Shown here: positions 18,102 through 60,616 of the stretch, in pieces
Position numbering within the stretch: the stretch's first letter is position 1
Layout: each line of letters begins with the position of its first letter
From: a virus
DNA length: 64,000 nt
Reading direction: 5' to 3' (one strand)
Virus genome (UHGV): UHGV-1550212
Notes under the pieces: generated by a model
The model's database searches: none
Told to the model about the DNA's origin: nothing
Seen by the model: only the letters and a program-made list of their open reading frames with translations
Program-made: the position numbers and the translations under genes

Positions 18102-18117
18102 TAAAATTCCTATATAA

Positions 18118-18146
18118 ATTGTACAACGCTTTGTGCACATTTGCAA
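18118..18146 (-). promoter_or_regulatory. Sigma70-like promoter (sense: TTGCAA-N17-TACAAT)
   Basis: Direct reading; upstream of sigma-like gene. Confidence 0.45.
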
Positions 18147-19495: not shown

Positions 19496-19502
19496 AGTCT
19501 AC

Positions 19503-23842: not shown

Positions 23843-23843
23843 A

Positions 23844-24703: not shown

Positions 24704-24723
24704 ATTCAATTATTGTTATGGTG

Positions 24724-27575: not shown

Positions 27576-27772
27576 GTGCCATTACGCTTACGACGTTCAA
27601 TTTCTGCTTCAACGTCATCAATGTCGTGATTTATTTGAGCAAGACGAATGTCATTGTCGTACTCTTTAAGCAATTGTTCAAACAAATCTTCTTTGAACTG
27701 CTTCAAACGTTCATTTGAAAATGCTCTTACATTCATATCAAAGTCTACAGTCTTTTTCAAGTTTCTTGTCAT
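27563..27772 (-). CDS. Hypothetical small charged protein (69 aa)
   Basis: ATG start. Confidence 0.4.
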   Translation of the reverse strand: MTRNLKKTVDFDMNVRAFSNERLKQFKEDLFEQLLKEYDNDIRLAQINHDIDDVEAEIERRKRNGTWNS

Positions 27773-28307
27773 TTATGACTGCATTCAACAAATAATTGAC
27801 ATGCTTACATGAATGACGATACATAAAGCCTGGGCAATCACAATATGCTTGCATTGATTCAGGATATAACACAAGTACATGTGAATTGCCTCGTGAGCCA
27901 AAGACCTTGTACTTGACTGGCGCTGTTGGCATGCCAATCAAATTGTTAATGTCTTGTGAATGCCTGATATTATGCAGTTGTTTAAGTGAAACCCAGTGTT
28001 CTGCGGCTTCAGTAGCAGACATCAAATCAATGCCAAATGCTTGTTTGTATTGTTGTTTGCAAAACAATTGCCATTTGTGTGCATATACAGAGTTCTTTTG
28101 CAGCATCTCTTTATGCAACAAATACTCTTCAATGTATCTTGGCTGCCAACGAGTTGACCATGACACAAATTCAGGCACAAACTGAATGTCTTCAAGAGTT
28201 GTGCCTGCTGGTACAGAATGCCAAGCATCACCTGTGCATGCATAAGTACCGGTCGTTGTTACAATTATTGCCGGATTACATTTGCCAATGATTTGAATCT
28301 TGTCCAT
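27738..28307 (-). CDS. SWIM zinc-finger protein
   Basis: ...YCDCPGFMYRHSCKHV (CxCxnCxH). Confidence 0.5.
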   Translation of the reverse strand: MDKIQIIGKCNPAIIVTTTGTYACTGDAWHSVPAGTTLEDIQFVPEFVSWSTRWQPRYIEEYLLHKEMLQKNSVYAHKWQLFCKQQYKQAFGIDLMSATEAAEHWVSLKQLHNIRHSQDINNLIGMPTAPVKYKVFGSRGNSHVLVLYPESMQAYCDCPGFMYRHSCKHVNYLLNAVINDKKLEKDCRL

Positions 28308-29931: not shown

Positions 29932-30168
29932 TTATTCGAAATCCGTGTCATCTGCATTTTCATTAGGGTCATAGATAAGCCATACAAATGCTGCACAGCC
30001 AAGTATGAATAAGCCTCCGCCAATGATTGTCGTAAAAACCGAACCAATCCAATGCTTCATAATATCACCGAGCGGATTCAATGTTTCATAGCCAATCATA
30101 AATGCGACAAATACAACTATTATTGCTGCTATTGCTTTGTTTGTGGTATTTCGTTTTATTGTTGCCAT
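29932..30168 (-). CDS. Small membrane protein (78 aa)
   Basis: Trimmed to ATG 30168 (MATIKRNTT...); two hydrophobic segments. Confidence 0.5.
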   Translation of the reverse strand: MATIKRNTTNKAIAAIIVVFVAFMIGYETLNPLGDIMKHWIGSVFTTIIGGGLFILGCAAFVWLIYDPNENADDTDFE

Positions 30169-30199
30169 TGTAGTAGAGGTTTGTTGTGTTCTGTATATT

Positions 30200-30221
30200 A
30201 TGTTCGAATATATGAGGACAT
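30200..30221 (-). promoter_or_regulatory. Leader palindrome ATGTTCGAATATATGAGGACAT (copy 1 of 3)
   Basis: Between promoter 30237..30265 and start codon 30168; near-identical copies at 47427 and 54380. Confidence 0.5.
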
Positions 30222-30236
30222 ATATTATATATAGAT

Positions 30237-30265
30237 ATATTACAACACGCAAATCATTTTTGCAC
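30237..30265 (-). promoter_or_regulatory. Sigma70-like promoter (GTGCAA-N17-TAATAT)
   Basis: Direct reading. Confidence 0.4.
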
Positions 30266-43783: not shown

Positions 43784-44842
43784 TTACTGCTTCAAGCCTG
43801 TGAACAGTTCATACTTGAATGCAGGCCCTGCTGTGTAAGCCTCAAAGTAGAAGTCACCAATATTGATGCTTGCAATAGCGTCATCGACAGCTTTCTTGTA
43901 GCCTACACGTTCAATTGTCTGCTTATCGCATTTACGCCAATATGTGCTGTGCATCATAAGCGTGGGTGATGCAGCATAGTCTACTGCAAGCTGTTGTTTT
44001 GCAGTGTCAATGTGATGTTCATAGATGTGCACATCATTGCCAGTCCAAATGAACTCTCTTGCCACACAGTTAGTCAATGTTGCAACAATATGTGTAAGCA
44101 ATGCATATGATGCGATATTGATGGGCACACCAAGACACATGTCACAGCTACGCTGAGTAAGCGCACAGTCAAGCCACATGCTTGGTACTTGAGCAGAATC
44201 AAGGCATTCTGCAGAACCATCATGCACAAGCATGCTATCATTAGCAATCTGAATTCGTTCTTCAAGAGTCATTGGCTGACAATTGAACTGAAACAGCATA
44301 TGACATGGCGGCAATGCCATCTGAGACATTTGCGCAGGATTCCATGCAGACACGACTTTGTAGCGGCCAGTTGGATTGATGACAATGTCTTTAATGCAAG
44401 TTGCAAGTTGGTCAAATCCACTGTCATTGAAGTTGCGCCACTGATACCCATAGATAGGTCCGCAATCACCATACTCAGGTTTGCTGAATTTTGTGTTGTG
44501 CAGTTCTGTGCACCAAGTGTCAAAGTCGACATCTTCACCTGGATGCAGCTTTTGCCAATGACGATATGCATCCTGATGCCAGAACTTTGTAATGCCAAGC
44601 GTGTCAAGCGTTTTGACATTAGTGTCACCTGACATAAACCACAGAAGTTCTCCAATGACGCCTTTGACAAACATTCTCTTGGATGTCAACAGTGGAAAGC
44701 CTTTACGCAAATCAAATCGCATTGATTCTACAAACAATGACTTTGTGCGAGGCATGTTTTCACGAGCAGGTTCCTTAAATCTGCCATGCTCAATAACATT
44801 ATTAAGTACTCTCAAGTACTCAGTGTCGTGTTTGATATTCAT
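43784..44842 (-). CDS. thyA: Thymidylate synthase (ThyA family) with an internal insertion
   Basis: FPLLTSKRMFVKGVIGELLWFMSG, GPIYGYQWRNF, ALPPCHMLFQF, QRSCDMCLGVPINIASYALL; Asn at the pyrimidine-specificity position. Confidence 0.8.
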   Translation of the reverse strand: MNIKHDTEYLRVLNNVIEHGRFKEPARENMPRTKSLFVESMRFDLRKGFPLLTSKRMFVKGVIGELLWFMSGDTNVKTLDTLGITKFWHQDAYRHWQKLHPGEDVDFDTWCTELHNTKFSKPEYGDCGPIYGYQWRNFNDSGFDQLATCIKDIVINPTGRYKVVSAWNPAQMSQMALPPCHMLFQFNCQPMTLEERIQIANDSMLVHDGSAECLDSAQVPSMWLDCALTQRSCDMCLGVPINIASYALLTHIVATLTNCVAREFIWTGNDVHIYEHHIDTAKQQLAVDYAASPTLMMHSTYWRKCDKQTIERVGYKKAVDDAIASINIGDFYFEAYTAGPAFKYELFTGLKQ

Positions 44843-45529: not shown

Positions 45530-47407
45530 TCAAAAGCCTGCAAAGAAATCAGCATCAGCAGCATCTTGCTGAGGTGTCGACTCTTGTTCAATCACAAATC
45601 GACTGTGCAACTTTTGATTATGTTTTATGTATGGCATAATGCGCCGGATTGATTCGTCAATGACAAATGTTTCACACCAGTCATTTGCATGTCGAATGCC
45701 TCGACCAACTGACTGTACGAAGCTTTGATAGCACTTGTTGCGATACCAGCTTTCGTGATTTGCAGCCTTTGTTTTTACTACGATATCACCAAGTGACTGC
45801 CAAGGTAATTTTGCAACAATTTGACATCTACAACGATTGTCTGGTAAGTCAACGCCTTCAGTAATGCTAAAGCCTACAAGTACGTAGTTAGTGCCATCAG
45901 CAAGCATTGCAAGTTTATTTTGTTTGTCTTCAGCATTGACATATGTCAGCATTCTGCGTTTGTGCTTGCTGTTGTTGATGATATAGTTTGCAATGTCTCG
46001 TGTTGATGTGTGTATGATACAGTTGCAGTCATGTGTATCAAGAATGCTGTCAATCTTCTCAACAAGTCGAGGCATATTTGCTGCTTTATTCTTGTAGCTC
46101 AATGACAACGCAGGTTTGCACAGTACAATGGGCGATTTGCTAAAATCCCAATCAGGCTCCATGTAGAATGCTACATAGTTTTTGATGCCATTGAGCGTAG
46201 CAAATGTATCAATGTCACCAATTGTCGCTGACATCCACAATTGTGCATGCGTAGCATCACTATGATGCACCAGTGTATTTGCAAGAAGCTCATCATTGAC
46301 ACATTTGAATTGCAAGCTGTTTGTTGCAGCATCAAGTACTACAAGCATGTCACCAGGTGATTGTTCAGTTGCATCAAGCATTGTAATGATTGAATATGAC
46401 AACGTATCACAGCTGGCAACAAAGCGAATGAACGCTTTCTCAAATTGACCAAGCATTTTGCCTGAATCCTGAAGTTCACGTAGCTTTTCATATGCAGTAT
46501 GCAAAAAGTCTACAAGTTCTGACAACTGCTGTGCAAGCACTCTTGCTTCTGCTCGCATTGTTGCAATGTCATATTGTGTTGTTGCAAGCTTAATGACTGC
46601 TTTGACTTGTGCAAACACATTGTTGCGAAGTTCTACATATTTGTTCTGATTTTCAAGAGTCATGATACCTGCAATCAGTGACTCGGCCTTTGTGCAATTC
46701 TGAATGAATCGAGGACCAATTGACGTGTCAAGAAAGCCTGACAAAATGTCATCAATCTTATGGCACTCATCGAATATCGTCAATTCACGAGGCCCAAACA
46801 AGTTTTTGACGCAATTAACTTGTATCAACCAGTACGCATAGTTAAGCACTGTGCAATTTGCTGCGGCAGCCTTTTGACGAGTCTGCAAATATGCGCATTT
46901 AGGTCCACATGGCAATGCAAGAGCTTTCTTTGATGACAACCCGTCTTGTTGGCATTTGCCCATACTGAATGGCAGACCATTGACATGACAAATGTAATTG
47001 TCTCGACCTTTGAGCATTACACAACTTCTGAATGCTGAAGTAGTTGTGTCTGCTTTAGCATTGTTGTCGTACAAATATTGTTGAATGAACTTGTCATACT
47101 GGTCTTGCAGCAGTTTATCAGAAGTCAGCACATACGACTTGAAGAATGTTGCGCAAAACATCGCAACCACAGATTTTCCCGTTCCAGTCGCTCCCTGCAA
47201 TATGACATGTTGCCCATTTGCAATTGCTCGAATAATGTCGATGATTAGATGACGCTGAGTTGCATCAAAACGCGCTTGGTCCCACTTGCATGTCTTTGAT
47301 TGCGCAAGATATGCTGAGAATTTATCAATATGTGCTACAATAAGCTCATCAAGTTCTTGCTGAGATTGCTCTTCTGTCTTATGTTCTGCTGGTGTTAGTC
47401 TACCCAT
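45530..47407 (-). CDS. Superfamily-2 DEAH helicase with Fe-S cluster cysteines (DinG/XPD-like)
   Basis: ILQGATGTGKS (Walker A), IFDECHKIDD (DExH), Cys cluster ...SCVMLK..YICHV..KCQ...PCGPKC. Confidence 0.7.
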   Translation of the reverse strand: MGRLTPAEHKTEEQSQQELDELIVAHIDKFSAYLAQSKTCKWDQARFDATQRHLIIDIIRAIANGQHVILQGATGTGKSVVAMFCATFFKSYVLTSDKLLQDQYDKFIQQYLYDNNAKADTTTSAFRSCVMLKGRDNYICHVNGLPFSMGKCQQDGLSSKKALALPCGPKCAYLQTRQKAAAANCTVLNYAYWLIQVNCVKNLFGPRELTIFDECHKIDDILSGFLDTSIGPRFIQNCTKAESLIAGIMTLENQNKYVELRNNVFAQVKAVIKLATTQYDIATMRAEARVLAQQLSELVDFLHTAYEKLRELQDSGKMLGQFEKAFIRFVASCDTLSYSIITMLDATEQSPGDMLVVLDAATNSLQFKCVNDELLANTLVHHSDATHAQLWMSATIGDIDTFATLNGIKNYVAFYMEPDWDFSKSPIVLCKPALSLSYKNKAANMPRLVEKIDSILDTHDCNCIIHTSTRDIANYIINNSKHKRRMLTYVNAEDKQNKLAMLADGTNYVLVGFSITEGVDLPDNRCRCQIVAKLPWQSLGDIVVKTKAANHESWYRNKCYQSFVQSVGRGIRHANDWCETFVIDESIRRIMPYIKHNQKLHSRFVIEQESTPQQDAADADFFAGF

Positions 47408-47448
47408 TCTAAATGAGATTTAGATTATGTTCGAATATATGAGAACAT
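47408..47448 (-). promoter_or_regulatory. Leader element: inverted repeat TCTAAAT-GAG-ATTTAGA plus palindrome ATGTTCGAATATATGAGAACAT (copy 2)
   Basis: Immediately upstream of helicase ATG; near-identical to 54361..54402. Confidence 0.5.
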
Positions 47449-47465
47449 ATATTATTTGTAAAAAT

Positions 47466-47494
47466 ATAATACTACAATCAGCATACATTTGCAC
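47466..47494 (-). promoter_or_regulatory. Sigma70-like promoter (GTGCAA-N17-TATTAT)
   Basis: Direct reading. Confidence 0.4.
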
Positions 47495-47499
47495 TTTGA

Positions 47500-47529
47500 C
47501 ATAACTGATTGATACTCAATCAGTTATGA
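47500..47529. promoter_or_regulatory. 13-bp perfect inverted repeat CATAACTGATTGA-TACT-TCAATCAGTTATG upstream of helicase promoter
   Basis: Direct reading; two CTGTCAGCTGTC direct repeats follow at 47586 and 47625. Confidence 0.4.
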
Positions 47530-47649
47530 GTTTATAAAAGTTTTCAAAAGTAGGGTGTTGTTGTTTGAGTAGAGTGTTGCTGATTCTGTCAGCTGTCTTG
47601 TTTGCGTTATCGATTGCTTGCAAACTGTCAGCTGTCATAGAACATCACA

Positions 47650-47685
47650 AAAGCAAGCAGACTACAATTGCAGTCTGCTTGCTTT
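47650..47685 (-). terminator. Intrinsic terminator after 47706..48062
   Basis: AGCAAGCAGACT-loop-AGTCTGCTTGCT, 14-bp stem. Confidence 0.55.
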
Positions 47686-47705
47686 GACATAGTTGTAATG
47701 TGAGT

Positions 47706-48062
47706 CTACTTGCGCATAAACAATGCAGCAAGCCAATTCACTGGCTTGTCAATAAGCTGCTTCCACATAGTCCAATTGTACATGCCATGCGCAAACATTG
47801 TAAGAGCAAACAACAGCATGCACATTGATACAAGCCAATCAGCAAATGGCATATTGCCCCATCGAATGTACTCGAAAATGCCAACTTTAACAAGCTGAGC
47901 AAACAAAATGAGCATTACAGCCATTGCAAGTCGCATCCAGACTACATATTGCTGAGTCTTATCTACAAACTTTGCAATCAATGCTGGCACAAAGTACATA
48001 ATGTACGCAAACAGCAACAAGCAAAAGCCTGCATACAGCAGATTAGAAATAAAAGCTCCCAT
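47706..48062 (-). CDS. Multi-pass membrane protein (118 aa)
   Basis: ATG start; hydrophobic throughout. Confidence 0.55.
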   Translation of the reverse strand: MGAFISNLLYAGFCLLLFAYIMYFVPALIAKFVDKTQQYVVWMRLAMAVMLILFAQLVKVGIFEYIRWGNMPFADWLVSMCMLLFALTMFAHGMYNWTMWKQLIDKPVNWLAALFMRK

Positions 48063-48065
48063 ATT

Positions 48066-48947
48066 TTATCGTTTGAATTTGATGAAGTGTTCAGCATCAA
48101 GGCCCTCAAATATGTACGGGTCAAGAGTTTCCCAGAAGTTTGAGTATGTCGTTGTCTTTGCAATACTTGTCTGCTTTGACAAGTTCATGTTTGGATAGCC
48201 AAGCATTGCATAGTGTCGCTCATATATGTGCATTGACGTTGCATTATGCATATAAGCGCCAAGCTTAAGACCAAGTTCATTTGCGACAAGTTCTTGCAAC
48301 AAAGTGAATGCAAACTGGTCGTTACAGAAGCCCCAAATGACATCATTGCTTCGCATATATGTTGTCAAGTACAGCTTATCACCACGAACATTGAAAACAA
48401 GATTCAATGTGCACGGCATATCTTTGCCAGTGTAGTTTGCATATTGCGGCTCATAAATGCTAATAACTGCTCGTCTTGTGCATTCATGATTTCGCAAACG
48501 TTCAATGACATCTGCAATCTGCTTGTGCCAAATTGCGCCATACTGTGAATTGACATTGACGCCATCATCACTGAACTGCTTCCAACGAGGCAAATAACGT
48601 TCAATGCATTCAACTGCAGGATTGGCTGTCATATACCATGCAAATTCTGCAGCAGCATTGAGCTTTTTCCATGGTCGTACATCAATCTTGATTTGTCGCT
48701 GTGAAGGGTCCTGAATAACTACAGACACATTCAGCAATTCTTTTGTTCGAGTCACTGTTTGTGCATTGTTGCCCTTTGATTCTACAAACTCACCTCTACA
48801 ATGAAGTTCATACAAAATTGAGCGAAATGCTTCTGTTGCAGTGTTTTCAACGATTGTCGTCTGTTGATAGCATAAATTTGACGACAATGCTTCAGCATCA
48901 TTGTACTTTATGCTGTCATTGTCATAAGGTGAATTTTTTGTGTGCAT
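48066..48947 (-). CDS. dCMP hydroxymethylase-like ThyA-fold enzyme (T4 gp42-like)
   Basis: ...DMPCTLNLVF, YMRSNDVIWGFCNDQFAF, SMHIYERHY; Asp at the position where thymidylate synthases have Asn. Start at 48947 chosen; ATG at 49088 also possible (would overlap HAD gene). Confidence 0.65.
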   Translation of the reverse strand: MHTKNSPYDNDSIKYNDAEALSSNLCYQQTTIVENTATEAFRSILYELHCRGEFVESKGNNAQTVTRTKELLNVSVVIQDPSQRQIKIDVRPWKKLNAAAEFAWYMTANPAVECIERYLPRWKQFSDDGVNVNSQYGAIWHKQIADVIERLRNHECTRRAVISIYEPQYANYTGKDMPCTLNLVFNVRGDKLYLTTYMRSNDVIWGFCNDQFAFTLLQELVANELGLKLGAYMHNATSMHIYERHYAMLGYPNMNLSKQTSIAKTTTYSNFWETLDPYIFEGLDAEHFIKFKR

Positions 48948-48972
48948 ATTTTGGGATGTTTGTTTTTTATTA

Positions 48973-50067
48973 TCATACAACGATAGTATCTCGTTTGCAA
49001 TCTGTTTTGTCAAATATTGAACAACAATACGATGCAGATTGTTCTTTGATTTCAAGAGCTTCATCATTATCAAGTGATGAAATGCCATCTATGTATGCTT
49101 TTGCATTGCCAGCAATGTCATCATTTGTTAACAACGCTGCACGACGTTCAGTGCCAAAGAAGCCAAAGCACAATTGATGTTGCAGTGCTTCACGAGAAGT
49201 CTTGTCATCAAACTCTGATTTCATGTGTTGCATAAATTCGACAATATCATCAATGTCGCATTGAGTAAAGTCAATGCACAATTTATGCATGTACTTGAAT
49301 CGTTTGTAGTCTGTTGCAAGAATTTCTGGGTGCACAATGAACAACGTCTTTTTGCTGTCTATTGGATTTGCAATGACTGATGCTTGAACATAATCGACAA
49401 GCATACCAGATTCACGAAGTTGCTCAATTGTTTTGCCAAACACATGCCCAAGCGTGTCATCAAACCACTTCAAGTATGCTTCACTGTCTTCATCTTTTGA
49501 CGCGCCAACAATGTAAATCTCATTGACTCCAAGTGCTTTGAGACGAGTATCAGACAACATAGTATTCAATTGATGCTGCACGTACAGCATTGGGCTGCTA
49601 TGCAAAACCGTTTTAACAATCTCACAAGCAATGTCCATATATGCATAGTCAAGCTTTGCAGATTTTGACACATACACTGCACGTTGCTGCAATGGCTCAA
49701 TTGCCGAGCATGTAGTTACAAAGTTGCCAACACATTCTGCTACTGCAATGTCATGCAAGTCATCTGCAATGTACACAATACTTGACAAGTCATCAAATGT
49801 TTGAACAAGTTGCTGAAGCTTTGTTTTGTAATTGCAGAGCATCAATGACTTGATGTTGCAATTACTTAGCATTGTCTTGATGAGTCGTTGACCTGCTTCA
49901 GTGCTGTCACCAGAAATGACATGCACATCGCAGTCAAACCAGTTCAGCATGTCAATTGCATGCCGAACACCATATTGCATTTGTTTTGCAAACTTACCAG
50001 ATTCATTGAACAGCATTTCACCTGACATAATGCCGTCAAAGTCACATACGATTTGAAGTCTGTCCAT
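48973..50067 (-). CDS. HAD-superfamily phosphatase domain protein with C-terminal domain
   Basis: VCDFDGIM (motif I DxDG), VHVISGDS, IADDLHD. Confidence 0.55.
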   Translation of the reverse strand: MDRLQIVCDFDGIMSGEMLFNESGKFAKQMQYGVRHAIDMLNWFDCDVHVISGDSTEAGQRLIKTMLSNCNIKSLMLCNYKTKLQQLVQTFDDLSSIVYIADDLHDIAVAECVGNFVTTCSAIEPLQQRAVYVSKSAKLDYAYMDIACEIVKTVLHSSPMLYVQHQLNTMLSDTRLKALGVNEIYIVGASKDEDSEAYLKWFDDTLGHVFGKTIEQLRESGMLVDYVQASVIANPIDSKKTLFIVHPEILATDYKRFKYMHKLCIDFTQCDIDDIVEFMQHMKSEFDDKTSREALQHQLCFGFFGTERRAALLTNDDIAGNAKAYIDGISSLDNDEALEIKEQSASYCCSIFDKTDCKRDTIVV

Positions 50068-50431: not shown

Positions 50432-53400
50432 TTAACAAATTGATGATGTGCCATCAGTGTTTGCTACAACTGTCAATGCGCTATCAAACTCATCTTGCTG
50501 TAACACATGGTCAACTATGAGTGTTTTGCGAATTGCAGAAAGCTTAGTAAGCAACTGCATCAACACTTGCTGATAATTGATGGTGTTGACGTCATGCTCA
50601 GCGCCAACAATCTGCCCGTTGCTAAGCTTGCCGCTAATTTCATCAATGAGCAAGATGTTGCCAACTTTGTTTAAGCGTTGAGTCAAAATGAGATGCACGA
50701 TTGCAAGACCTGCGAAAGTCCCTTCCATACCAGACATTTGACTTACACTTCGAATTGACTTCGAGCCCATCAAGTCAATCATCTTTAGCACATTGTTGTC
50801 ATTGATGTCAAAGAACACTCGGTAGTTCAATGAATCAAGCAAATCATTGAGCTGTGCATTCAGTGATGTTGCAATTGCTGCAAAGACATATGAAACTAAG
50901 CCTCGTTTGCTTGTGCACTGCTTATATGCATTGTACACCAAGTTTGCAATGTTCCACTTTTTCGAAGCTTGCAAATCTTTCTTGAGAGCTTCAATTCGCA
51001 CATTGTTTGCTGACAAGTCTGCTTGCATTGTTGCAATTTCTGCATTGATGCTTAGCAGTTTTGAGTTTGCTTCAGTTTCATGCTGCTTAGCATCATCAAT
51101 GTCGACTTGCAATGCAGCGTTTGCCACAATATGCTGCTGAGTTTGCTGTGCATGTTCAAGTGCAAATGCTGCAGCAGTCTTGTCAATCTCAAGTTGTTTA
51201 AGAGTAGACTCATATGATGCTTTCTTATCATATTCTGCTTGAGCAATTTCAAGTTCAGCATTTATTGCAGCCAGTTCTGATTCTACTGCAGATTTTGATT
51301 GCAATACATCTTGCTTTGCTTGTTCAGCTTTACGTTTGATGTCTGCAAGTTGATTTGTGATATCTGCAATTTGCGTTTTGACTGCTTCAACTTCAAGCAA
51401 TGTTGCTGCAGTAGCCATTGGCTGTGCAATGAATGCATCCAAGTCTCTTTGCGCATTGACTACAGTTCTTTGCAAGTCATTAAGCTTTTCTGCATGCATA
51501 TCATATGCAGCTTTATGTGCTGTATTCAGTGCAGCAATTATTGCATTTGAATCTGTGACATCAATGATTGCTGCTTGCAATTGCTCAATCTCATACTTCA
51601 AATTGCCAATTTTGACAACATTCTCATTGAATTGCTCTGTCTTTTGCGCGTATTCTTGACGCAACTTAGCAAGCTCAGTTGACAACCACAGCTTGTATGC
51701 TTGCCCTGTGCCAGATGTCAAATCATTTGTGCACACAGGACATTTATCATTTTCAAGTTGCTTTTGCTTGTCTATAACATTGTCGATGTTTGTTTTTGCA
51801 GCAGATACTTCTGTTCTAAGTGCATTTTGAACAGTGTTGATGTCTTCAATTTGCTTTTGCAAAGCATCTATTTTTGCCCGAGTGTCTGCATTATATGACT
51901 TGCCAAGATTTACCAGCACAGAATCAATGCGCTGCTTTGCTGCATCATATGCAAGCTTTGATTCATCAAGCTTTGTTCTGTACAATGATTCTGCATGCGC
52001 AACTTCTTTCTGCACTTTTGCAGATAGCTCATTCTGTTTTGTAAGCAGCTCAGCATATGTATTGTGCAGCTGTGAGCCAGATGCTATGACATTTGTGTAT
52101 GCTGCATTAGCTTCATTGTCAATATTAGTGAGTTGTTGCTCAATCTGCGCTTTTACTGTTTGCAATTTAGACATGTCTTGCAATGCAAGTGCAGCAATGT
52201 CAAGCTCAACTTTGCGAATCTTTGCAACGATGCTATCGACATTTGCTGTTGCATCTTCTACAGTTAAAATATCTGCAGGAATTTGATGCAGTCTTTTTGA
52301 GAGCTCTTCTACTTTTGCACGTGCTTTTGTAAGTTTTGCAGACCATTCCCTTTGATTATCTTGTCGTAACTGCAAAGAGTCATTGAGTTCATTGCAAGTT
52401 GTATTGAGAGACTCAAGTTCTGCTTTTATTGCGACATCAGTCAATGCGGGCTTACTAAGGCCATCAAACAATGCGGCCTTTGCAGCATCATTAGAATTGC
52501 CCAGTTGCACGAATGTGTTGATGCCAAGAGTATCAAGCAACCAGTCATTCAATGAATTTGAATCCATTGCAATGATTTGGTCAAGTAATGTCTGATTGAT
52601 GCAGACATATCGCGACAATTCCCAGATAGAACCAAAGATTGCGTATAGCGTGTCTTTGATTTCATGCTGTGGCACTACGTAGTCATCTGACAATCTTACA
52701 AGCTGCACAGTCTCATTGACTGCTGACACGTTATCTCGCCATGAGCCATCTGCATTTATTCGAGAGCCCCGTTTGAATCTACGTTCAAGTGTTCGAGTTA
52801 ATTTGTAGTGAACATTTTGACCAGCTACTACATGTACAAATACACAAGATGCTTCAAGCTTATCATATGACTCATTGTCAATCAATTTGTCATTGAAGTA
52901 TGTCAAAGCGTTCTGCTTTGTTGCTGCAGAAGACTGTCCAGCGTCAATAAAGCCAGTCAGCAGCCATTTAATGAGTCTGAAGATTGTTGTTTTGCCATTG
53001 CCGTTGTTGCCTCTAACTTGTGTAAGCTGTGCAAGATTGTCAAAGCTGACATCGACATCTTTCAATGCCATGAACTGATTTGCTTTGACATTTTGAATGA
53101 CGTATTTTGCAACTTCAGTGTCAAAAGACAATTTATCAATTTGCTCATCAATCAATGACTTGAACATGTCAACAAACTGCTGAGCGTCTTCAGTAGCAAC
53201 TATAGCATTGCGTTCAATGTACGCATTGACCCAGTCAAGTGCAGCATCTTTAAGCCATTCAGCAGTTTGAACTTTTTGCAGCAAATTGTCGCCATTTGCA
53301 TCTACAGCATTGATTGAATCAATGACAGCAGAATCATACAGAATGTCAATTGCGGCAACAACGTATGAACTTACAAGATTCTGTGCAATGCGCTCAACAA

Positions 53401-54358
53401 TGCCAGACAGTTCGGGCTTTGTGACCTTTGACTTGATTTTGATTTTGTTGATGCGACCAGGATTGATGAGTGCAATCTTATCTGTTTTGATGTCATTGTC
53501 AATTGTGATTGTATGATAATGCACAAGCTGCTCAAGCGAATGCCACTCTACTACAATTCGCTTGTTGTCAATATCGATGTCAAGCAAGTTGTAGCCATGT
53601 TCTGCAGTGCCCTGTTGCGTTGCAGTGTCATTCAACAAATAGTCGCCTTCACCAAAATCTCTGACAATTGGCGAGCCGCAGTATGTCAATGTCTTGGTGC
53701 CAGAAGTCCATATTGCATGTTTGTGAATATCACCCATTGCAACAAAGTTGCTGTGAAACTGTGTTGCATCTATACGACTGTCATTGTCACCACGAACAAT
53801 GCAGTCATCAAAGTTGACGCAATTCTTTACAGGGTCATGGAACAGCTCAATAACACACATTGATGACAATGCAGCAATCTGCGATTCGTCAAGTGATGCC
53901 CAAGGCGAATATGTGCCACCAGACCACTTCTCATTTTGAGCCCATACTGCAGCAGCAAAACCAGGTGCAAGCAGTTCAACTCTTGAACTGTTGATATACT
54001 TGATTCGCTTGTCATCAATTGCAGTTACAAGCTTGTCAATGCTATCTGTCCACTGCATTTGTGAACCATCACCAGCATCAAATGTGTTATCACGTTGCTT
54101 CAAATCATGATTGCCAGCAGTAATGACAATTTGAAGCTTGTCATTGACTTCAAGCATGCCTTTGAGCAGCTTAACAAACAGCGACTCTTCAAGTGAATTG
54201 CTGTTCCACTGCTCAAACACATCGCCAACAATAAACACAAACTCAACCGACTTTGCTTTGTCAATTAGTTGTTTGTTGATGTGCTCATATTCTACGAAAC
54301 GTCGTAAATGCCCTTGTCGAACATTATATTGAATGTCTGCTATGTGAAGTGCTTTCAT
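50432..54358 (-). CDS. Mre11/SbcD nuclease fused to Rad50/SbcC ATPase in one 1308-aa polypeptide
   Basis: N-terminus HIADIQYN, FIVGDVFE, ITAGNHD, GDIHKH (calcineurin-like phosphoesterase); then VRGNNGNGKTTIF (Walker A), long coiled coil with CPVC hook, ILLIDEISG (Walker B), TLIVDHV. Confidence 0.8.
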   Translation of the reverse strand: MKALHIADIQYNVRQGHLRRFVEYEHINKQLIDKAKSVEFVFIVGDVFEQWNSNSLEESLFVKLLKGMLEVNDKLQIVITAGNHDLKQRDNTFDAGDGSQMQWTDSIDKLVTAIDDKRIKYINSSRVELLAPGFAAAVWAQNEKWSGGTYSPWASLDESQIAALSSMCVIELFHDPVKNCVNFDDCIVRGDNDSRIDATQFHSNFVAMGDIHKHAIWTSGTKTLTYCGSPIVRDFGEGDYLLNDTATQQGTAEHGYNLLDIDIDNKRIVVEWHSLEQLVHYHTITIDNDIKTDKIALINPGRINKIKIKSKVTKPELSGIVERIAQNLVSSYVVAAIDILYDSAVIDSINAVDANGDNLLQKVQTAEWLKDAALDWVNAYIERNAIVATEDAQQFVDMFKSLIDEQIDKLSFDTEVAKYVIQNVKANQFMALKDVDVSFDNLAQLTQVRGNNGNGKTTIFRLIKWLLTGFIDAGQSSAATKQNALTYFNDKLIDNESYDKLEASCVFVHVVAGQNVHYKLTRTLERRFKRGSRINADGSWRDNVSAVNETVQLVRLSDDYVVPQHEIKDTLYAIFGSIWELSRYVCINQTLLDQIIAMDSNSLNDWLLDTLGINTFVQLGNSNDAAKAALFDGLSKPALTDVAIKAELESLNTTCNELNDSLQLRQDNQREWSAKLTKARAKVEELSKRLHQIPADILTVEDATANVDSIVAKIRKVELDIAALALQDMSKLQTVKAQIEQQLTNIDNEANAAYTNVIASGSQLHNTYAELLTKQNELSAKVQKEVAHAESLYRTKLDESKLAYDAAKQRIDSVLVNLGKSYNADTRAKIDALQKQIEDINTVQNALRTEVSAAKTNIDNVIDKQKQLENDKCPVCTNDLTSGTGQAYKLWLSTELAKLRQEYAQKTEQFNENVVKIGNLKYEIEQLQAAIIDVTDSNAIIAALNTAHKAAYDMHAEKLNDLQRTVVNAQRDLDAFIAQPMATAATLLEVEAVKTQIADITNQLADIKRKAEQAKQDVLQSKSAVESELAAINAELEIAQAEYDKKASYESTLKQLEIDKTAAAFALEHAQQTQQHIVANAALQVDIDDAKQHETEANSKLLSINAEIATMQADLSANNVRIEALKKDLQASKKWNIANLVYNAYKQCTSKRGLVSYVFAAIATSLNAQLNDLLDSLNYRVFFDINDNNVLKMIDLMGSKSIRSVSQMSGMEGTFAGLAIVHLILTQRLNKVGNILLIDEISGKLSNGQIVGAEHDVNTINYQQVLMQLLTKLSAIRKTLIVDHVLQQDEFDSALTVVANTDGTSSIC

Positions 54359-54360
54359 AT

Positions 54361-54402
54361 TCTAAATGAGATTTAGATTATGTTCGAAATATATGAGAAC
54401 AT
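54361..54402 (-). promoter_or_regulatory. Leader element (copy 3): TCTAAATGAGATTTAGA + ATGTTCGAAATATATGAGAACAT
   Basis: Immediately upstream of Mre11-Rad50 ATG. Confidence 0.5.
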
Positions 54403-54417
54403 ATATTATATGTTGAT

Positions 54418-54446
54418 ATTGTACAACATATGTTATCATTTTGCAA
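54418..54446 (-). promoter_or_regulatory. Sigma70-like promoter (TTGCAA-N17-TACAAT)
   Basis: Direct reading. Confidence 0.45.
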
Positions 54447-54783
54447 GCATTTTGATGATTGCATCTATCACAGTTTCACTGAGCAAGTAGTAGACAACGC
54501 TTATCAGCAATGATATCAGTACTGCAGCTGTGATAAATTGCAACGCATTCACAATTGCACGCACAAATGTTATCTGCGTGTTGTATGCAAGCACTATGCA
54601 GCATAGCACAATAATGACACACCAGACTACAATTGCATATGCAGGCATCAATGAATTTGTCCATATGCAGTACAATACAGTAATTAGCATCAAAAATGCT
54701 ATTGCTCTGATAACTGACACAATGATGTCTATGTAAGGCTTCATTGCACGCAAATGAACTCTTGGTTTATGTTGCTTCATCAT
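54436..54783 (-). CDS. Multi-pass membrane protein (115 aa)
   Basis: ATG start; hydrophobic. Confidence 0.55.
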   Translation of the reverse strand: MMKQHKPRVHLRAMKPYIDIIVSVIRAIAFLMLITVLYCIWTNSLMPAYAIVVWCVIIVLCCIVLAYNTQITFVRAIVNALQFITAAVLISLLISVVYYLLSETVIDAIIKMLAK

Positions 54784-56012
54784 GACTTTATGTACAATTC
54801 TGCAAGTTGTCTGGTGTACAGTCGTGGATTATGATATGCTTTCCAATACGCAGTAGACTTTATTGCAGCAAGAATTTCATCATAATGTTTGACTGCTTCT
54901 GCTACAACTTCATCAAGCACGCTCAAATCTTCTACACTGACAAGCAACCATTTTTCTACAATATCAATGAACTCCTGATTGCAATTGAAGCCATACTTGT
55001 AGTTGCAAGTATCAAGTACAAGTGGAATGCAATCATTTGTCAATGCTTCAAAAAATCTACGAAGACTGAAACAATTCTCATCATATGATGGAATGCTCAA
55101 TGTAAACTTGGCAGTCTTGATGAGTTGCAAATACTCTTCGTATGGAATCAGAGGACCATTGTGCTTCCATTGATTATTGTGTCGTCTTGTCGTGTACTTG
55201 AACAAAAACTTTGAATTGTCAAGTTCACAAAGATGGTCCATGCGTAAAATGTAGTTATAGCGGTCTCTTCTGTCAGGCCAACTGTCAGTCATCGCAAACA
55301 CAAAGTCTCTTTGCTTGTCACATTTTGCTGACATACCTCTATGCTGACACATGCAATACCAATATTGCTGCGATGGGCTGAACTCAAACTTTGAATGATG
55401 CTCACTTCCATCTTTGCATTGCTGAACATAAATGTTGTCAGGCACAAAGTGAAAATAAAAGTGTCGAATTTGCAAGTCATTGATGTAGTCAAGCTTATGC
55501 TGCAATGGGTCTTCACAGAAATTGTAACACTGAATATGCTTTGCTGCTGCGTACTCAGCAACTATGAACGTGCACATCCATTGCAATGCAATATCTTCAC
55601 TCTTCAAAAAGTTTACAAGCGGCTCATTTGGATGCGCTTTGCATTCATTGAACATTTTGTACCACTTGCATTGCTCCATATCGTACTTTGATACTGTATT
55701 GCCATTAAAGAACGACACAGTGTCAATTTTGAATGCATCAAGTTGTTTATGCACAATGTCAAGTGCTTGTGCGTATGTGATTGTCTCATCAGACATTATC
55801 TGCGCAAACTTGATTGGATGCGCATGCAAATTTGCGATAGTGTCTGCCGACATTTTACGCTGTGTGTGATAATCGACATACAAAAACTGACACTTGTCTG
55901 TAAGCAATTCAAGCATTGCTACAGATTTCCATCGAATTGCTTGAAAGAAATTGAAGTGTGCAGTTTGAAAGATGAGATGCGTAGGTTTATCAGAATGAGT
56001 CAAAGTTTGCAT
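54780..56012 (-). CDS. Glycosyltransferase-like protein (GT-B type), cassette 1
   Basis: C-terminal ...IPSYDENCFSLRRFFEALTNDCIPLV (E...EA..x.P motif); paralog of 59060..60616. Confidence 0.45.
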   Translation of the reverse strand: MQTLTHSDKPTHLIFQTAHFNFFQAIRWKSVAMLELLTDKCQFLYVDYHTQRKMSADTIANLHAHPIKFAQIMSDETITYAQALDIVHKQLDAFKIDTVSFFNGNTVSKYDMEQCKWYKMFNECKAHPNEPLVNFLKSEDIALQWMCTFIVAEYAAAKHIQCYNFCEDPLQHKLDYINDLQIRHFYFHFVPDNIYVQQCKDGSEHHSKFEFSPSQQYWYCMCQHRGMSAKCDKQRDFVFAMTDSWPDRRDRYNYILRMDHLCELDNSKFLFKYTTRRHNNQWKHNGPLIPYEEYLQLIKTAKFTLSIPSYDENCFSLRRFFEALTNDCIPLVLDTCNYKYGFNCNQEFIDIVEKWLLVSVEDLSVLDEVVAEAVKHYDEILAAIKSTAYWKAYHNPRLYTRQLAELYIKS

Positions 56013-57175
56013 GGACAAATGTCGCAGTTATGTTGATGTTTGTGTTTATTTATGAAGTCATATGTCACTGCAAAAAAGTGCTTTGCAATGTCATATCGAG
56101 TTTTCAAATATGCTGCTTGGCGTTCACAAAACGCTGCATAAATGTCTGGGTGTCGTTTGAATGCAGCAATGCGTTGCTGTACTTGTTCTGCAGAATGTAC
56201 ATATGACACTTTGCTCAAATATGCATCATCTGCAAATAATCGTCTGTCTTTGTCAACTGCGCAATCAACAAAAGTTGCAATTCGTGCAACAATGGCTTCA
56301 CCAACACGATTTGGCATCAACCCATATTGCTCATATTGTTGGTCACCGATAGCAATGTGCGCTGCTGCATATGACATTGCATATGGCACACTATAAAATG
56401 GCACACTAAAATCAAATGAGCAATTTGACTGTAGTAGTTGCGTTTGTGCATCAGACAATCTACTTGTCAAGTTGCCTGTATGTTTGTGCTCACCAAGAAA
56501 ACTTGAGCGACAACCTGAATCTACATAGTATCGAATGACTTTGTTTATGCGACTGTCAGATAGCATATGCCAATCTCTTGTAGCATATATCAAGTCTACT
56601 GTTTTTGCACCAATATGACGAGGCTCTATCGCAACATTGCTGTATGTTGGCAGCATGAACAATGGCAGCCATTTGACATTGTTGAACACTGAATGTTCAT
56701 TTGACAAATTCATGCACTGGCTAAGTTCAAGTACTGGCTCATCATACACGCCATGCAGTTCAACTCTGCCTGCATGCACAAAGTTGACACGCTTAAATGG
56801 AAATCGCATATCAGTGCAAACCGTCATTCTTGCTGCAGTAGACATTCGCCACATAGCATGCAGCTTAACAACTGCTTCGGCTTGAGGTCGAGGCAGCATA
56901 TTTAGCAAATCAATCCAGCCACCCCACAAAATCCAAACATCATTTGAACAGATGTTGAATTGCAAACTCAATATGTCTTCTACTGTTGCAGCAATGATGT
57001 CATGCCCATTGATGCTTGCAAGGTGCTTTCGTTGATTTGCAATAAGAATGACTTGACTGAACGGAGACTCTGGAAATGACACAAGCGCCTTTGCAAACAA
57101 CACGGGTTCTTGTGATACCAAGTTGTTTGAGTATGGGTCGATTATGCAATCAAGCTTGTGTATGAAAAGTCTCAT
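56000..57175 (-). CDS. Possible DNA glycosyltransferase, cassette 1 partner
   Basis: ...ILWGGWID...TVCTDMRFPF; paralog of 60613..61779; resemblance to T4 beta-glucosyltransferase is from memory and weak. Confidence 0.4.
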   Translation of the reverse strand: MRLFIHKLDCIIDPYSNNLVSQEPVLFAKALVSFPESPFSQVILIANQRKHLASINGHDIIAATVEDILSLQFNICSNDVWILWGGWIDLLNMLPRPQAEAVVKLHAMWRMSTAARMTVCTDMRFPFKRVNFVHAGRVELHGVYDEPVLELSQCMNLSNEHSVFNNVKWLPLFMLPTYSNVAIEPRHIGAKTVDLIYATRDWHMLSDSRINKVIRYYVDSGCRSSFLGEHKHTGNLTSRLSDAQTQLLQSNCSFDFSVPFYSVPYAMSYAAAHIAIGDQQYEQYGLMPNRVGEAIVARIATFVDCAVDKDRRLFADDAYLSKVSYVHSAEQVQQRIAAFKRHPDIYAAFCERQAAYLKTRYDIAKHFFAVTYDFINKHKHQHNCDICPCKL

Positions 57176-58109: not shown

Positions 58110-58164
58110 TGGCAGGTTTCTTGCTTTGTAAAGCTTGGATAGAGGATGGATTTTATATGTTGAT

Positions 58165-58193
58165 ATTGTACAACATGCAAAATGCATTTGCAT
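58165..58193 (-). promoter_or_regulatory. Sigma70-like promoter (ATGCAA-N17-TACAAT)
   Basis: Direct reading; proximal of a tandem pair. Confidence 0.4.
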
Positions 58194-58211
58194 TTTGATA
58201 CAACATGCATT

Positions 58212-58240
58212 TTGATACAACATATATTGTCATTTTGCAC
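58212..58240 (-). promoter_or_regulatory. Sigma70-like promoter (GTGCAA-N17-TATCAA)
   Basis: Direct reading; distal of tandem pair. Confidence 0.35.
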
Positions 58241-58445
58241 AGTCTGAGGCAATCAAATCTTTGTCAAAGCATTCATCTATAATGTCTTCAATAAGATACG
58301 CTTCGACATTGTTAAGCTTCAAGATATCTACGAGTTTTGCTTTGATATCGCAAGCTAATGCAGATTCAACTGTATGCAATATGACTGATGATGCGACATG
58401 CTTGTCTGTCATCATTTGTAATTGCTGTGGTGTTACTCTACTCAT
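58230..58445 (-). CDS. Hypothetical protein (71 aa)
   Basis: ATG start, ATGA overlap with kinase gene. Confidence 0.45.
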   Translation of the reverse strand: MSRVTPQQLQMMTDKHVASSVILHTVESALACDIKAKLVDILKLNNVEAYLIEDIIDECFDKDLIASDCAK

Positions 58446-59039: not shown

Positions 59040-59068
59040 ACAGTACAACGTAGTTATGCTCATTGCAC
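59040..59068 (-). promoter_or_regulatory. Weak sigma70-like promoter (GTGCAA-N17-TACTGT)
   Basis: Direct reading. Confidence 0.3.
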
Positions 59069-60616
59069 TTCTACGAATGGCTCTTTCAACACAAAGCTGT
59101 CACCATTGCAACATGCGGCTGAGCCATCGTCTGCATCAAGTGCACATGACATATCAGACTTGCAGAACTTGCAATATAAACATGACCATGCATGACTCAT
59201 GAAGTTGTTTGCTTCACAAATTGCGCAACGCTCATGCATAAGTGCATTGTCGCAATTATCACAAGACTTCTTGATTGGCACAGTTTTGTTGATGTATGCA
59301 AGATGCAATGCAATATCATACACAAAGTCACCCGTATATTGCTGAATGAAATCAGTATGCCACAACTCTTTTAACAATTGTGCATGTCTATATGGCTGAA
59401 CAATGTCTTCAAGATGCTGCAAGTCATCATCGCTAACCATGAGCTTCTTAATGACAAATTGTTTGAACTGTGGCCATCTGTCAAACATATAGAGTTTGCA
59501 TGAGTTGTGCACAAGTGGAACACAGCCAAGCACAATGCTTTCACAGAATCTACGCAAACTAAAACAGTTTGCATCATATGACGGCACAATCAATGTGAAT
59601 CTGCTATGCTTGATGAGTTCAAGGTATGTGTCATATGGCAGTAGCTTATCTGACAATTGCTGTTGTTGTTTGTCTCTGCTGAAAAATCTGAACACAATAC
59701 CCTTGTCAATTGCATCTTGATTGTGCAGATGCATGAGTTTGTTGATGAGTTCTGTGCGTTCAGTTTTGTCTCGCCAAGTATTCGTCAATGCAAATGCAAA
59801 ATTCAGTCGCTTGTCATCAAACGTCGCTTCAATATCATTCCAAGTTTTGTCATGCAAATACCAGTATTGCTGTGATGGGCACCATCCATAATATGCAATA
59901 GCATCTTGTTCTGCTGTAACGTCATACACATATGCAGAATTGTATTCAAGGCCAAGCCTTTTGACGTTGTTGCAGTCATGAAAGTACCAATGCTGCACTT
60001 TGAATATCTTTGATGCACTGAATGCGCTTTCATATGGCCCTGAATAGCGATAGTCAATGTAATTGAGCTTGTGCTGCAATGGGTCTTCGACAAAGTTGTT
60101 TATGACTGTGCCTTGTTGTTTGCCCTTAGTCTTGCGAGCATTCAATGCAACATTGTATTGCATGATGACTGACAGCATCTCATACACTACATACATGAGT
60201 GCTTTGTAGACTGAGCCTGCTGCGTCAATTAGTGGCAAATCACGTTTGACTGATGTAGCGCCAAATGTCTTGCAATATGCAGAAAATGTGTCAAGTTCTG
60301 CTTGCTGAAATGAATTGCATGCACCATTGAATATGTTGAATGTTGCAATGTAGCTCATATTGCAAGATGTCATTGACATATCAAGACGCTTCATAATGTC
60401 GACAATGCGACATTGAGCAAAATCTGACACATCAACATATTTGACATGATGGCCTGATGTAGTCAAGCCATCTGCGACATCTTTCATCTGTGGCACAAAG
60501 CCTACAACAATGAATAAGTCATCTTTGTTTGCTCGTTCAAACATTGCTGCACTTTTCCAAGTCAATGAATTGAAAAAGTCTATGTAGCCAGTTTGAGTGA
60601 TTATATGCGTTCTCAT
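59060..60616 (-). CDS. Glycosyltransferase-like protein (GT-B type), cassette 2
   Basis: ...VPSYDANCFSLRRFCESIVLGCVPLV; N-terminus also parallels 54780..56012. Confidence 0.45.
   Translation of the reverse strand: MRTHIITQTGYIDFFNSLTWKSAAMFERANKDDLFIVVGFVPQMKDVADGLTTSGHHVKYVDVSDFAQCRIVDIMKRLDMSMTSCNMSYIATFNIFNGACNSFQQAELDTFSAYCKTFGATSVKRDLPLIDAAGSVYKALMYVVYEMLSVIMQYNVALNARKTKGKQQGTVINNFVEDPLQHKLNYIDYRYSGPYESAFSASKIFKVQHWYFHDCNNVKRLGLEYNSAYVYDVTAEQDAIAYYGWCPSQQYWYLHDKTWNDIEATFDDKRLNFAFALTNTWRDKTERTELINKLMHLHNQDAIDKGIVFRFFSRDKQQQQLSDKLLPYDTYLELIKHSRFTLIVPSYDANCFSLRRFCESIVLGCVPLVHNSCKLYMFDRWPQFKQFVIKKLMVSDDDLQHLEDIVQPYRHAQLLKELWHTDFIQQYTGDFVYDIALHLAYINKTVPIKKSCDNCDNALMHERCAICEANNFMSHAWSCLYCKFCKSDMSCALDADDGSAACCNGDSFVLKEPFVEVQ

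Follow-up and report, generated by a model that had tools for sequence, protein, structure and literature searches.

The stretch of DNA analysed here (hereafter, the window) comprises 64,000 nt of UHGV virus genome UHGV-1550212, an uncultured T4-like phage, and covers about a third of that genome. Pfam and PHROG scans identified a T4-type portal, tail sheath and prohead protease among the encoded proteins, which mark the phage as a large T4-like myovirus; baseplate and head-closure proteins, a gp55-like late sigma factor and a family B DNA polymerase are also encoded. Our subject is a repeated, palindromic leader found upstream of three of the genes, namely, those for a helicase, a fused Mre11-Rad50 protein and a small membrane protein. 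All three lie on the minus strand, and the leaders are, therefore, read 5' to 3' on the reverse complement. The leader proves to be composite: two short palindromic sequences, which we term block 1 and block 2, are optional, lineage-specific modules that are present or absent as exact units, and they always take the same place, just 3' of a repeated early-type promoter. The genes concerned are as follows:

45530-47407, minus strand: DinG/Rad3-like helicase gene (Helicase_C_2, phrog_2488), behind the first leader
50432-54358, minus strand: fused Mre11-Rad50 (SbcD-SbcC-like) gene, 1308 aa (Metallophos and AAA_23), behind the second leader
29932-30168, minus strand: gene for a 78-aa membrane protein with two hydrophobic segments (two-helix), behind the third leader

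The domain matches of the first two and the hydrophobic segments of the third bear out the gene assignments of the initial annotation, which was made from the sequence alone, without database searches.

Taken together with the ATAAT that precedes it, block 1 is 32 or 33 nt long and takes the form ATAATATATGT(T/C)CTCATATAT(T)TCGAACATAAT on the minus strand. It occurs three times: exactly at 47424-47455, with one extra T at 54377-54409 and with one T>C change at 30197-30228. No further copy was found in the 64 kb at up to 3 mismatches or indels, nor at 5 edits. Searching with the 32-nt block gives two matches within 3 mismatches and the third with a 1-nt insertion, where shuffled sequences are expected to give 0. 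Block 2, the palindrome TCTAAATCTCATTTAGA, is found only at 47408-47424 and 54361-54377, with 0.23 occurrences expected by chance. The individual copies are:

47424-47450, minus strand: block 1, helicase copy, the 27-nt indel unit ATATGTTCTCATATATTCGAACATAAT, which follows an ATAAT (47451-47455) and whose own end is also ATAAT
47408-47424, minus strand: block 2 (TCTAAAT-CTC-ATTTAGA), helicase copy, adjoining the ATG (47407); -2.3 kcal/mol as RNA
54377-54404, minus strand: block 1, Mre11-Rad50 copy, a 28-nt unit with one extra T, ATATGTTCTCATATATTTCGAACATAAT
54361-54377, minus strand: block 2, Mre11-Rad50 copy, 2 nt before the ATG (54358)
30197-30223, minus strand: block 1, small-membrane-gene copy, ATATGTCCTCATATATTCGAACATAAT, without block 2

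In gene sense, the three complete leaders read:

Helicase: GTGCAA-N17-TATTAT-ATTTTTACAA-ATAAT-ATATGTTCTCATATATTCGAACATAAT-CTAAATCTCATTTAGA-ATG
Mre11-Rad50: TTGCAA-N17-TACAAT-ATCAACAT-ATAAT-ATATGTTCTCATATATTTCGAACATAAT-CTAAATCTCATTTAGA-AT-ATG
Small membrane gene: GTGCAA-N17-TAATAT-ATCTATAT-ATAAT-ATATGTCCTCATATATTCGAACATAAT-ATACAGAACACAACAAACCTCTACTACA-ATG

The initial annotation had described a shared leader of ~45 nt with the palindrome TCTAAAT/ATTTAGA next to the start codon. The repeat is real: the sequences lie where they were reported, block 1 is expected 0 times in shuffles, and block 2 does abut the start, at 0 nt from the ATG of the helicase gene and 2 nt from that of the Mre11-Rad50 gene. 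It is the extent that needed revision, as the similarity continues upstream into a common promoter. Block 1 lies at varying distances from the AUG, namely, 17, 19 and 28 nt in the three leaders; in the membrane-protein gene, it is an unrelated 28-nt leader that separates block 1 from the ATG at 30168.

The promoter belongs to a class that emerges alike from the 130-nt upstream regions of all genes, from direct-repeat families D2-D4, D6, D8 and D9, and from a motif listing: (G/T)TGCAA(A)-N~12-(T)GTTGTA(C/A)AAT, usually followed by ~8-13 AT-rich nt ending in ATAAT. This cassette ((G/T)TGCAA-N17-TAcAAT...ATAAT) precedes at least 12 genes in the window; in minus-strand terms, the sites are at ~63955, 63902, 58221/58204/58174, 54427, 47475, 43678 and 30246, with others at ~28360, 26267, 22461 and 18127. 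The copies upstream of the three leaders are:

47466-47494, minus strand: helicase cassette, GTGCAA-N17-TATTAT, predicted to be sigma70-like; repeat families D2, D4 and D8
54418-54446, minus strand: Mre11-Rad50 cassette, TTGCAA-N17-TACAAT, then ATCAACATATAAT; sigma70-like in a consensus scan, with a 9/12 match; repeat families D2 and D3
30237-30265, minus strand: small-membrane-gene cassette, GTGCAA-N17-TAATAT; repeat families D2, D4 and D8

Only these three window cassettes carry palindromes, always directly 3' of ATAAT and downstream of the -10 region. The junction after ATAAT is constant in the three window leaders, in two empty sites of related strains and in the leader of a 189-aa gene on a related contig (see below). 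Moreover, the cassette before the gene at 43638 shares both its promoter and its start-proximal leader (AAACCTCTACAACAATG) with the membrane-protein gene, and lacks block 1. Judged from sequence, the leader architecture is modular. None of the ATGs is preceded by a Shine-Dalgarno motif of the GGAG/AGGA type, and GGAG itself is depleted (10 observed versus 25 expected); leader structure should, therefore, matter for initiation.

Block 1 contains two overlapping, mutually exclusive stems, P1a and P1b. The first, AATATATG-N4-CATATATT, has 8-bp arms around a 4-nt centre, and its first three bases are supplied by the cassette ATAAT. The second, TATGTTC-N10/11-GAACATA, is the stem that the initial annotation had noticed as ATGTTC-N10-GAACAT. 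The P1a cores lie at:

47434-47453, minus strand: helicase copy, AATATATG-TTCT-CATATATT; -4.4 to -4.9 kcal/mol as RNA, -4.4 kcal/mol as DNA, z -3.7
54388-54407, minus strand: Mre11-Rad50 copy
30207-30226, minus strand: small-membrane-gene copy, centre TCCT

Folding returns P1a for most leaders, as the minimum-energy structure or the centroid. It is isoenergetic with P1b in the copies of the helicase and Mre11-Rad50 genes (-4.9 versus -5.2 kcal/mol). For the membrane-protein gene, the window has ATATATG-TCCT-CATATAT and a relative from IMG/VR has ATATATG-CCCC-CATATAT; here, P1a has energies of -4.9 and -4.0 kcal/mol, and P1b only -0.8 and 0. Across the five sequenced copies, all variation falls either in the centre of P1a (TTCT, TCCT or CCCC) or 3' of it (the extra T), such that its arms are never altered and its energy is -4.0 to -4.9 kcal/mol in 5/5 copies. 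As the natural variants break P1b yet spare the P1a arms, it is P1a, and not P1b, that constitutes the invariant core; the ATGTTC/GAACAT hairpin, by comparison, is intact in the first two copies and is broken in the third and in its ortholog. The more general claim that the element can form a hairpin fares better, since the leaders fold more stably than their shuffles (z -3.2 and -3.7), albeit with weak energies. The hairpin of block 2 comprises a 7-bp stem and a triloop.

Several other explanations for these sequences were considered and set aside. A function on the opposite strand would have accommodated the T>C changes in the membrane-gene copies, as these would preserve ATGTTC/GAACAT through G-T or G-U pairs on the plus strand; it was rejected because P1a accounts for all of the variation without wobble, and because the plus-strand folds (z -0.3 to -1.9) are no better than shuffles. 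An intrinsic terminator or attenuator would call for a G+C-rich stem and a U-tract, and the leaders have neither: the stems are AT-rich, with no T-run after them. A second promoter within block 1 (TTTACA-17-TATATT or TCAACA-17-TATATT) was given little weight on the grounds that such matches are as numerous in shuffles and that the third copy is without the -35 element. The TTCGAA inside block 1 is unremarkable as a restriction site (24 observed versus 20 expected). Rfam had no match in the window at the gathering score; within 47350-47720, nothing matched even at E<=1.

Look-ups with small proteins of the window gave window-type strains alone or no strain at all. Our comparison set consists of three close haplotypes (~94-96% DNA identity) and one partial contig, among which block 1 is distributed as follows:

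Window haplotype: present at the helicase, Mre11-Rad50 and membrane-protein genes (centre TCCT at the last)
IMGVR_UViG_3300045988_149023 (L001-L003, L015): present at the helicase gene, absent at the Mre11-Rad50 gene, present at the membrane-protein gene (centre CCCC)
ERZ19243320 / SRR20627581 (L004, L005): absent at the helicase gene, present at the Mre11-Rad50 gene (L004); the membrane-gene leader lies outside the sample

The empty sites read ...ATAAT/CTAAATC..., i.e. they are exact 27- or 28-nt deletions between two ATAAT repeats. The helicase unit is identical in L002 and exactly absent in L004 and L005; conversely, the Mre11-Rad50 unit is the same in L004 and missing as an exact unit in L002. 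The membrane-gene ortholog in L003/L015 reads ATATGCCCCCATAT.... Wherever block 1 is present, its spacing is 10 nt in the helicase copy and 11 nt in the Mre11-Rad50 copy, and this constancy at each locus implies that the copies are orthologous across strains, which makes two losses that occurred independently the best account of the absences. Around the helicase copy, L002 and L004 have variants in common that set their flanks apart from the window, and the block is lost in L004 alone; at the Mre11-Rad50 locus, the loss in L002 coincides with a promoter rebuilt as the tandem form of 58174-58221. The absences of block 1 thus look derived. Leaders that have lost block 1 all begin with block 2, and at least one palindrome directly follows ATAAT in each affected leader.

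Block 2 likewise has an alternative location. In contig OGNF01004922.1 (93% identical), it follows the cassette ATAAT upstream of the ortholog of an unrelated 189-aa gene (27738-28307 in the window), 36 nt from the ATG, whereas the window has no palindrome at the same site; a metagenome scan for ATAAT plus block 2 found this one contig only. In IMG/VR, block 1 was found in a single close relative (175.6 kb, two sites), the 11 other matches to an 18-nt sub-pattern being unrelated coding sequence. A scan of the same database with the P1a core was uninformative, as its matches, at least 118 in number, are all unrelated AT-rich palindromes. Among more distant relatives, synteny and the promoter class are retained in L006 (63% helicase identity) and in L024, L026 and L028 (~45%); before the helicase and Mre11-Rad50 genes of these four, the leaders are short, and neither block was found in them.

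These distributions do not sustain the proposal that the element is conserved on replication and recombination genes. Block 1 is missing at either the helicase or the Mre11-Rad50 gene in ~95%-identical strains, and the orthologous leaders of the relatives at 63% and ~45% helicase identity are without either block. Nor is the element restricted to such genes: block 1 also precedes the membrane-protein operon, and block 2 the unrelated 189-aa gene of OGNF01004922.1. Occurrence before unrelated genes genome-wide had been named in advance as the observation that would count against the proposal, and these two cases come close to it.

The best reading, in our opinion, is that the blocks are accessory expression-tuning modules and not a dedicated replication/recombination switch. 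A cis-regulatory role, whether at the RNA or DNA level, is the most likely kind of function; to this extent, the earlier suggestion of a cis-regulatory element stands, there being a non-chance, hairpin-capable repeat between promoter and start, and it is as a conserved operator that it fails. The explanation that we tentatively favour, although we rate it as less likely than not, is that the blocks are accessory hairpins close to the 5' terminus of early mRNAs, and that slippage, or recombination among cassettes resembling the promoter-early stem-loop (PeSL) cassettes of T4-type phages, accounts for their gain and loss. The shared leader would be the downstream end of a repeated early-type cassette, (G/T)TGCAA-N17-TA(C/A)AAT, ~8-13 nt and ATAAT, with the two short AT-rich perfect palindromes (block 1, of 27/28 nt with P1a as its proposed functional core, and block 2) slotted directly after ATAAT, in what is predicted to be the initially transcribed region. 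The blocks would then be transcribed as the first ~5-60 nt of early mRNAs; a start ~7 nt beyond the -10 hexamer would place the P1a arm ~3-6 nt from +1, and in leaders without block 1, block 2 would take the place of the first hairpin. Presumably, such weak 5' hairpins would tune mRNA lifetime and/or the access of ribosomes to leaders that have no Shine-Dalgarno sequence. The modules themselves could arise, spread and vanish through replication slippage across the hairpin between the ATAAT repeats, and recombination among homologous cassettes may also spread and remove them. Two unrelated palindromes that share one promoter-relative slot fit a generic hairpin role better than a specific protein site; this common slot, the retention of at least one palindrome per leader and the lack of a Shine-Dalgarno sequence together favour a generic role as 5' hairpins.

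The closest parallel is with PeSL cassettes (PMC2839356, Arbiol et al. 2010; PMC4122927, Comeau et al. 2014), in which a terminator stem-loop is placed immediately 5' of the promoter, and which end with a Shine-Dalgarno sequence (PMC4122927). As with PeSLs, a sigma70-like early promoter is repeated at many intergenic sites of a T4-like myovirus, together with short stem-loops, and the cassettes vary between close relatives, where they mark indel or recombination joints (the 1.2-kb DNA of L003, described below, and the Mre11-Rad50 promoter of L002). A hairpin or terminator also lies just upstream of some of the cassettes (at 47500-47528, and before 43638 and 22430). Unlike in PeSLs, however, both blocks are found 3' of the -10 box, without a U-tract and with no Shine-Dalgarno sequence after them, and the variable unit is the 17-28-nt palindrome itself, not a cassette-flanked gene. 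Because they are neither upstream terminators nor succeeded by a Shine-Dalgarno sequence, we have not classed them as PeSLs. A second parallel is offered by the ompA-type stem-loops, which reportedly (Emory, Bouvet and Belasco, in 1992) stabilize bacterial and phage mRNAs from a 5'-terminal position. Like these, the blocks would form short hairpins of arbitrary sequence, predicted to lie a few nucleotides from the 5' end, with a position set by the start site; unlike these, their stems are weak and AT-rich, and their 5' position comes from a predicted start.

A number of observations weigh against 5' hairpins as the explanation. The energies of the P1a and block 2 hairpins are low overall (-2.3 to -4.9 kcal/mol). 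The stems are perfect Watson-Crick helices without G-U pairs, and there are no compensatory changes in any copy, which means that sequence cannot separate an RNA function from a DNA function; perfect dyads with a free central spacer are equally typical of protein operators. Moreover, the proximity of the hairpins to the 5' end is read from the consensus -10 box alone, the comparison set is small, and natural loss at two loci means that the modules are dispensable and may be neutral.

Neutrality is, indeed, the alternative that best survives, although we still consider it unlikely. Here, the palindromes would be functionless by-products of template switching or slippage that were copied between cassettes and are now being lost. 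A hairpin flanked by short direct repeats is a classical substrate for replication slippage, and the two independent exact deletions between 5-nt direct repeats that flank a hairpin are what such a process would leave; the weak folding energies also fit, as does the apparent accumulation of T>C changes in the membrane-gene copy. Possible traces of an origin by template switching can be discerned: block 2 aligns at 11/18 positions with the ordinary leader AAAACCTCTACAACAATG, as if its 5' arm had rewritten the 3' arm, and the junction of promoter and block at the Mre11-Rad50 gene forms yet another palindrome, AACATATA-A-TATATGTT. Furthermore, recombination between cassettes is visible, and the blocks were not found outside the species-level lineage. 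What speaks for constraint is that the P1a arms are spared by every change, that no affected leader is left without a palindrome directly 3' of ATAAT, and that the window and L002 show 0 differences in the 47 nt of the blocks versus ~6% in flanking intergenic DNA, although this last comparison is weak (P ~0.05).

A little less probable again, in our estimation, is that P1a and, separately, block 2 are operators bound by a dimeric DNA-binding regulator at about positions +5 to +25 of the early promoter. From such a lacO1-like position, a repressor encoded by phage or host would shut off a small regulon (the helicase, Mre11-Rad50 and the membrane-gene operon). The geometry is apt: P1a is a perfect 8-bp inverted repeat about a free 4-bp spacer, centred ~15 nt past the predicted start as in lacO1 and the Cro/CI operators, it lies immediately 3' of the -10 box and overlaps a TATAAT-like motif, and its variation is confined to the middle 4 bp, whose bases a bound dimer would not have to touch. 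The paucity of P1a sites (3 in 64 kb) and the weakness of the RNA hairpins are also compatible with binding at the DNA level. Nevertheless, unlike the classical operators, these sites are dispensable in natural strains, having been lost at two genes, and they are absent from the orthologous leaders of relatives. The two unrelated palindromes in one slot would require two distinct proteins, and no helix-turn-helix, Cro/CI, MotA-like or other DNA-binding regulator was found among the ~60 open reading frames (ORFs) of the window, which is itself about a third of the genome. AT-rich palindromes of this sort are, besides, common by chance in AT-rich phages, as the unrelated IMG/VR matches show.

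The initial annotation had proposed a common translational operator or transcription-factor site. On the former reading, a hairpin by the AUG would be bound by a phage RNA-binding repressor of the RegA/gp43/gp32 type and would co-regulate replication and recombination genes. T4 employs such operators, bound by RegA, gp43 and gp32-type repressors, and the resemblance is not without substance: the portal, sheath, prohead protease and gp55-like late sigma factor identify the phage as T4-like, and block 2 is an AU-rich element with a gap of 0-2 nt to the AUG in each of the two DNA-metabolism genes, in the manner of the T4 RegA, gp43 and gene 32 operators. Yet, in contrast to those operators, neither the AUG-relative position nor the presence of the element in orthologs is conserved. 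Block 2 is 36 nt from the AUG of the unrelated gene in OGNF01004922.1, the distance from block 1 to the AUG is variable, and neither block occurs in the orthologous leaders of relatives; that is to say, the blocks are positioned by the promoter ATAAT and not by the start codon, which argues against a classical translational operator. In addition, no homolog of such a repressor, including any RegA-like family, emerged from the Pfam and PHROG scans of the ~60 window ORFs, and the block 2 hairpin amounts to just -2.3 kcal/mol. We regard this explanation as improbable.

Least probable, by a small margin, is that block 1 is a mini mobile hairpin, i.e. a REP- or IS200/IS605-like single-stranded DNA element that is mobilized in trans by a Y1/HUH transposase, inserts 3' of ATAAT, excises seamlessly and so rewires single gene leaders from one strain to the next: a ~27-nt unit with a hairpin core, exact ends that are the same whether block 2 or ATACAGAAC... 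follows on the right, an invariable position 3' of a fixed pentanucleotide, ATAAT, that recurs as its own last 5 nt, and seamless empty sites are all as in such elements, but there are just 2-3 copies per genome rather than tens to hundreds, none was found outside the homologous promoter cassettes or this phage lineage, the ~60 window ORFs scanned include no Y1_Tnp or RAYT-like protein, and slippage between 5-nt repeats gives the same seamless deletions with no need for an enzyme.

Nothing here is categorically new. If, as we tentatively suppose, the modules tune expression as 5' hairpins, then the lineage supplies natural isogenic allele pairs, with and without a module, at two genes of DNA metabolism, and with them a ready test of what short 5' hairpins do on leaders without a Shine-Dalgarno sequence in an uncultured T4-like phage. 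The PeSL idea would also be extended, in that 17-28-nt sub-promoter modules, and not just genes, would be shuffled between repeated regulatory cassettes. If, on the other hand, the modules are neutral, they offer a clean natural example of slippage at a hairpin with direct repeats, and a warning that repeated palindromic phage leaders need not be operators.

Additional variation was observed around the promoters. Just upstream of the helicase cassette is a further hairpin:

47500-47528, minus strand: perfect hairpin with a 13-bp stem, CATAACTGATTGA-GTA-TCAATCAGTTATG; -10.8 kcal/mol, z -7.3

The loop of this hairpin is inverted from GTA to TAC in both close relatives, where a C>T change in one arm retains a wobble pair. 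At 58151-58253, promoter pieces are arranged in tandem (GTTGTATCAAAATGCA repeated, then GTTGTACAAT), and a relative has one repeat less. At the position corresponding to 24719-24721 in the window, L003 has ~1.2 kb of extra DNA (its 19273-20505), which ends in a full cassette (GTTGTACAATATCAACATATAAT) directly before a 114-aa gene, i.e. a PeSL-like gene-cassette indel. The hexamer TATATA is rare (8 versus 43 expected), and most of its sites (7866, 18111, 30226, 39253, 43658 and 50411) are found shortly before genes, in the context (C/T)ATATATAA(T/C). Possibly, this is a motif of late promoters that, at some sites, stands in tandem with the early cassette; the gp55-like late sigma factor is encoded at 17601-18140 (phrog_234, E 2e-7).

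With regard to the phage and the three genes themselves, parts of ENA contig ERZ27261301 k119_106340 (176,073 bp) are 100% identical to the window, as are Logan contigs from ERR1137001 and ERR1137265. Megablast and blastn searches with 7-10 kb queries found no DNA-level relative among 50,697 phage records, and the nearest proteins to the helicase, at ~30% identity, are from the Chryseobacterium MA9V, Tenacibaculum PTm1 and Sphingomonas PAU jumbo phages. No tRNAs were found within the window. In the Mre11-Rad50 ORF, Metallophos spans residues 1-103 and AAA_23 (Rad50/SbcC-like) residues 427-690 of a single 1308-aa chain, and the fusion is kept in relatives as ORFs of 1310-1402 aa; the T4 counterparts, gp47 and gp46, are two separate proteins. 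The 78-aa membrane-protein gene heads a run of small genes.

Elsewhere in the window, the tetranucleotide GATC does not occur in the 64 kb, versus ~175 expected from trinucleotide frequencies, and CTAG (2 versus 61) and TTTAAA (2 versus 43) are similarly scarce, which looks like strong restriction-site avoidance. A set of genes at 23468-24335, 43784-44842, 48066-49088, 54780-57175 and 59060-60616 includes two thymidylate-synthase-like genes (possible pyrimidine hydroxymethylase), a dUTPase/dCTP-deaminase-like gene and MazG, together with a beta-glucosyltransferase-like gene and two GT47-like glycosyltransferases; the set as a whole suggests that the DNA may be hypermodified in a T4-like manner. 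The family B DNA polymerase is apparently split into an exonuclease/N-terminal part and a polymerase-domain part (24724-26229 and 21138-22430), with four genes in between, including MazG and the dUTPase-like gene. Tandem repeats occur within two ORFs: ~14 copies of a 12-nt repeat (GGTTCCGGTTCA) at 6-185, within the ORF at 4-420, and three copies of a 30-nt repeat (CAGTTTAACATGACCGCAGTCATCTGCAAG) at 10997-11086, in the 3' end of a 412-aa ORF just upstream of the portal gene. This 412-aa ORF (10982-12220) gives a weak homing-endonuclease match, and its neighbour, a 146-aa protein encoded at 13188-13628, has a TnsA-like/endonuclease domain, its PHROGs annotation being head closure.

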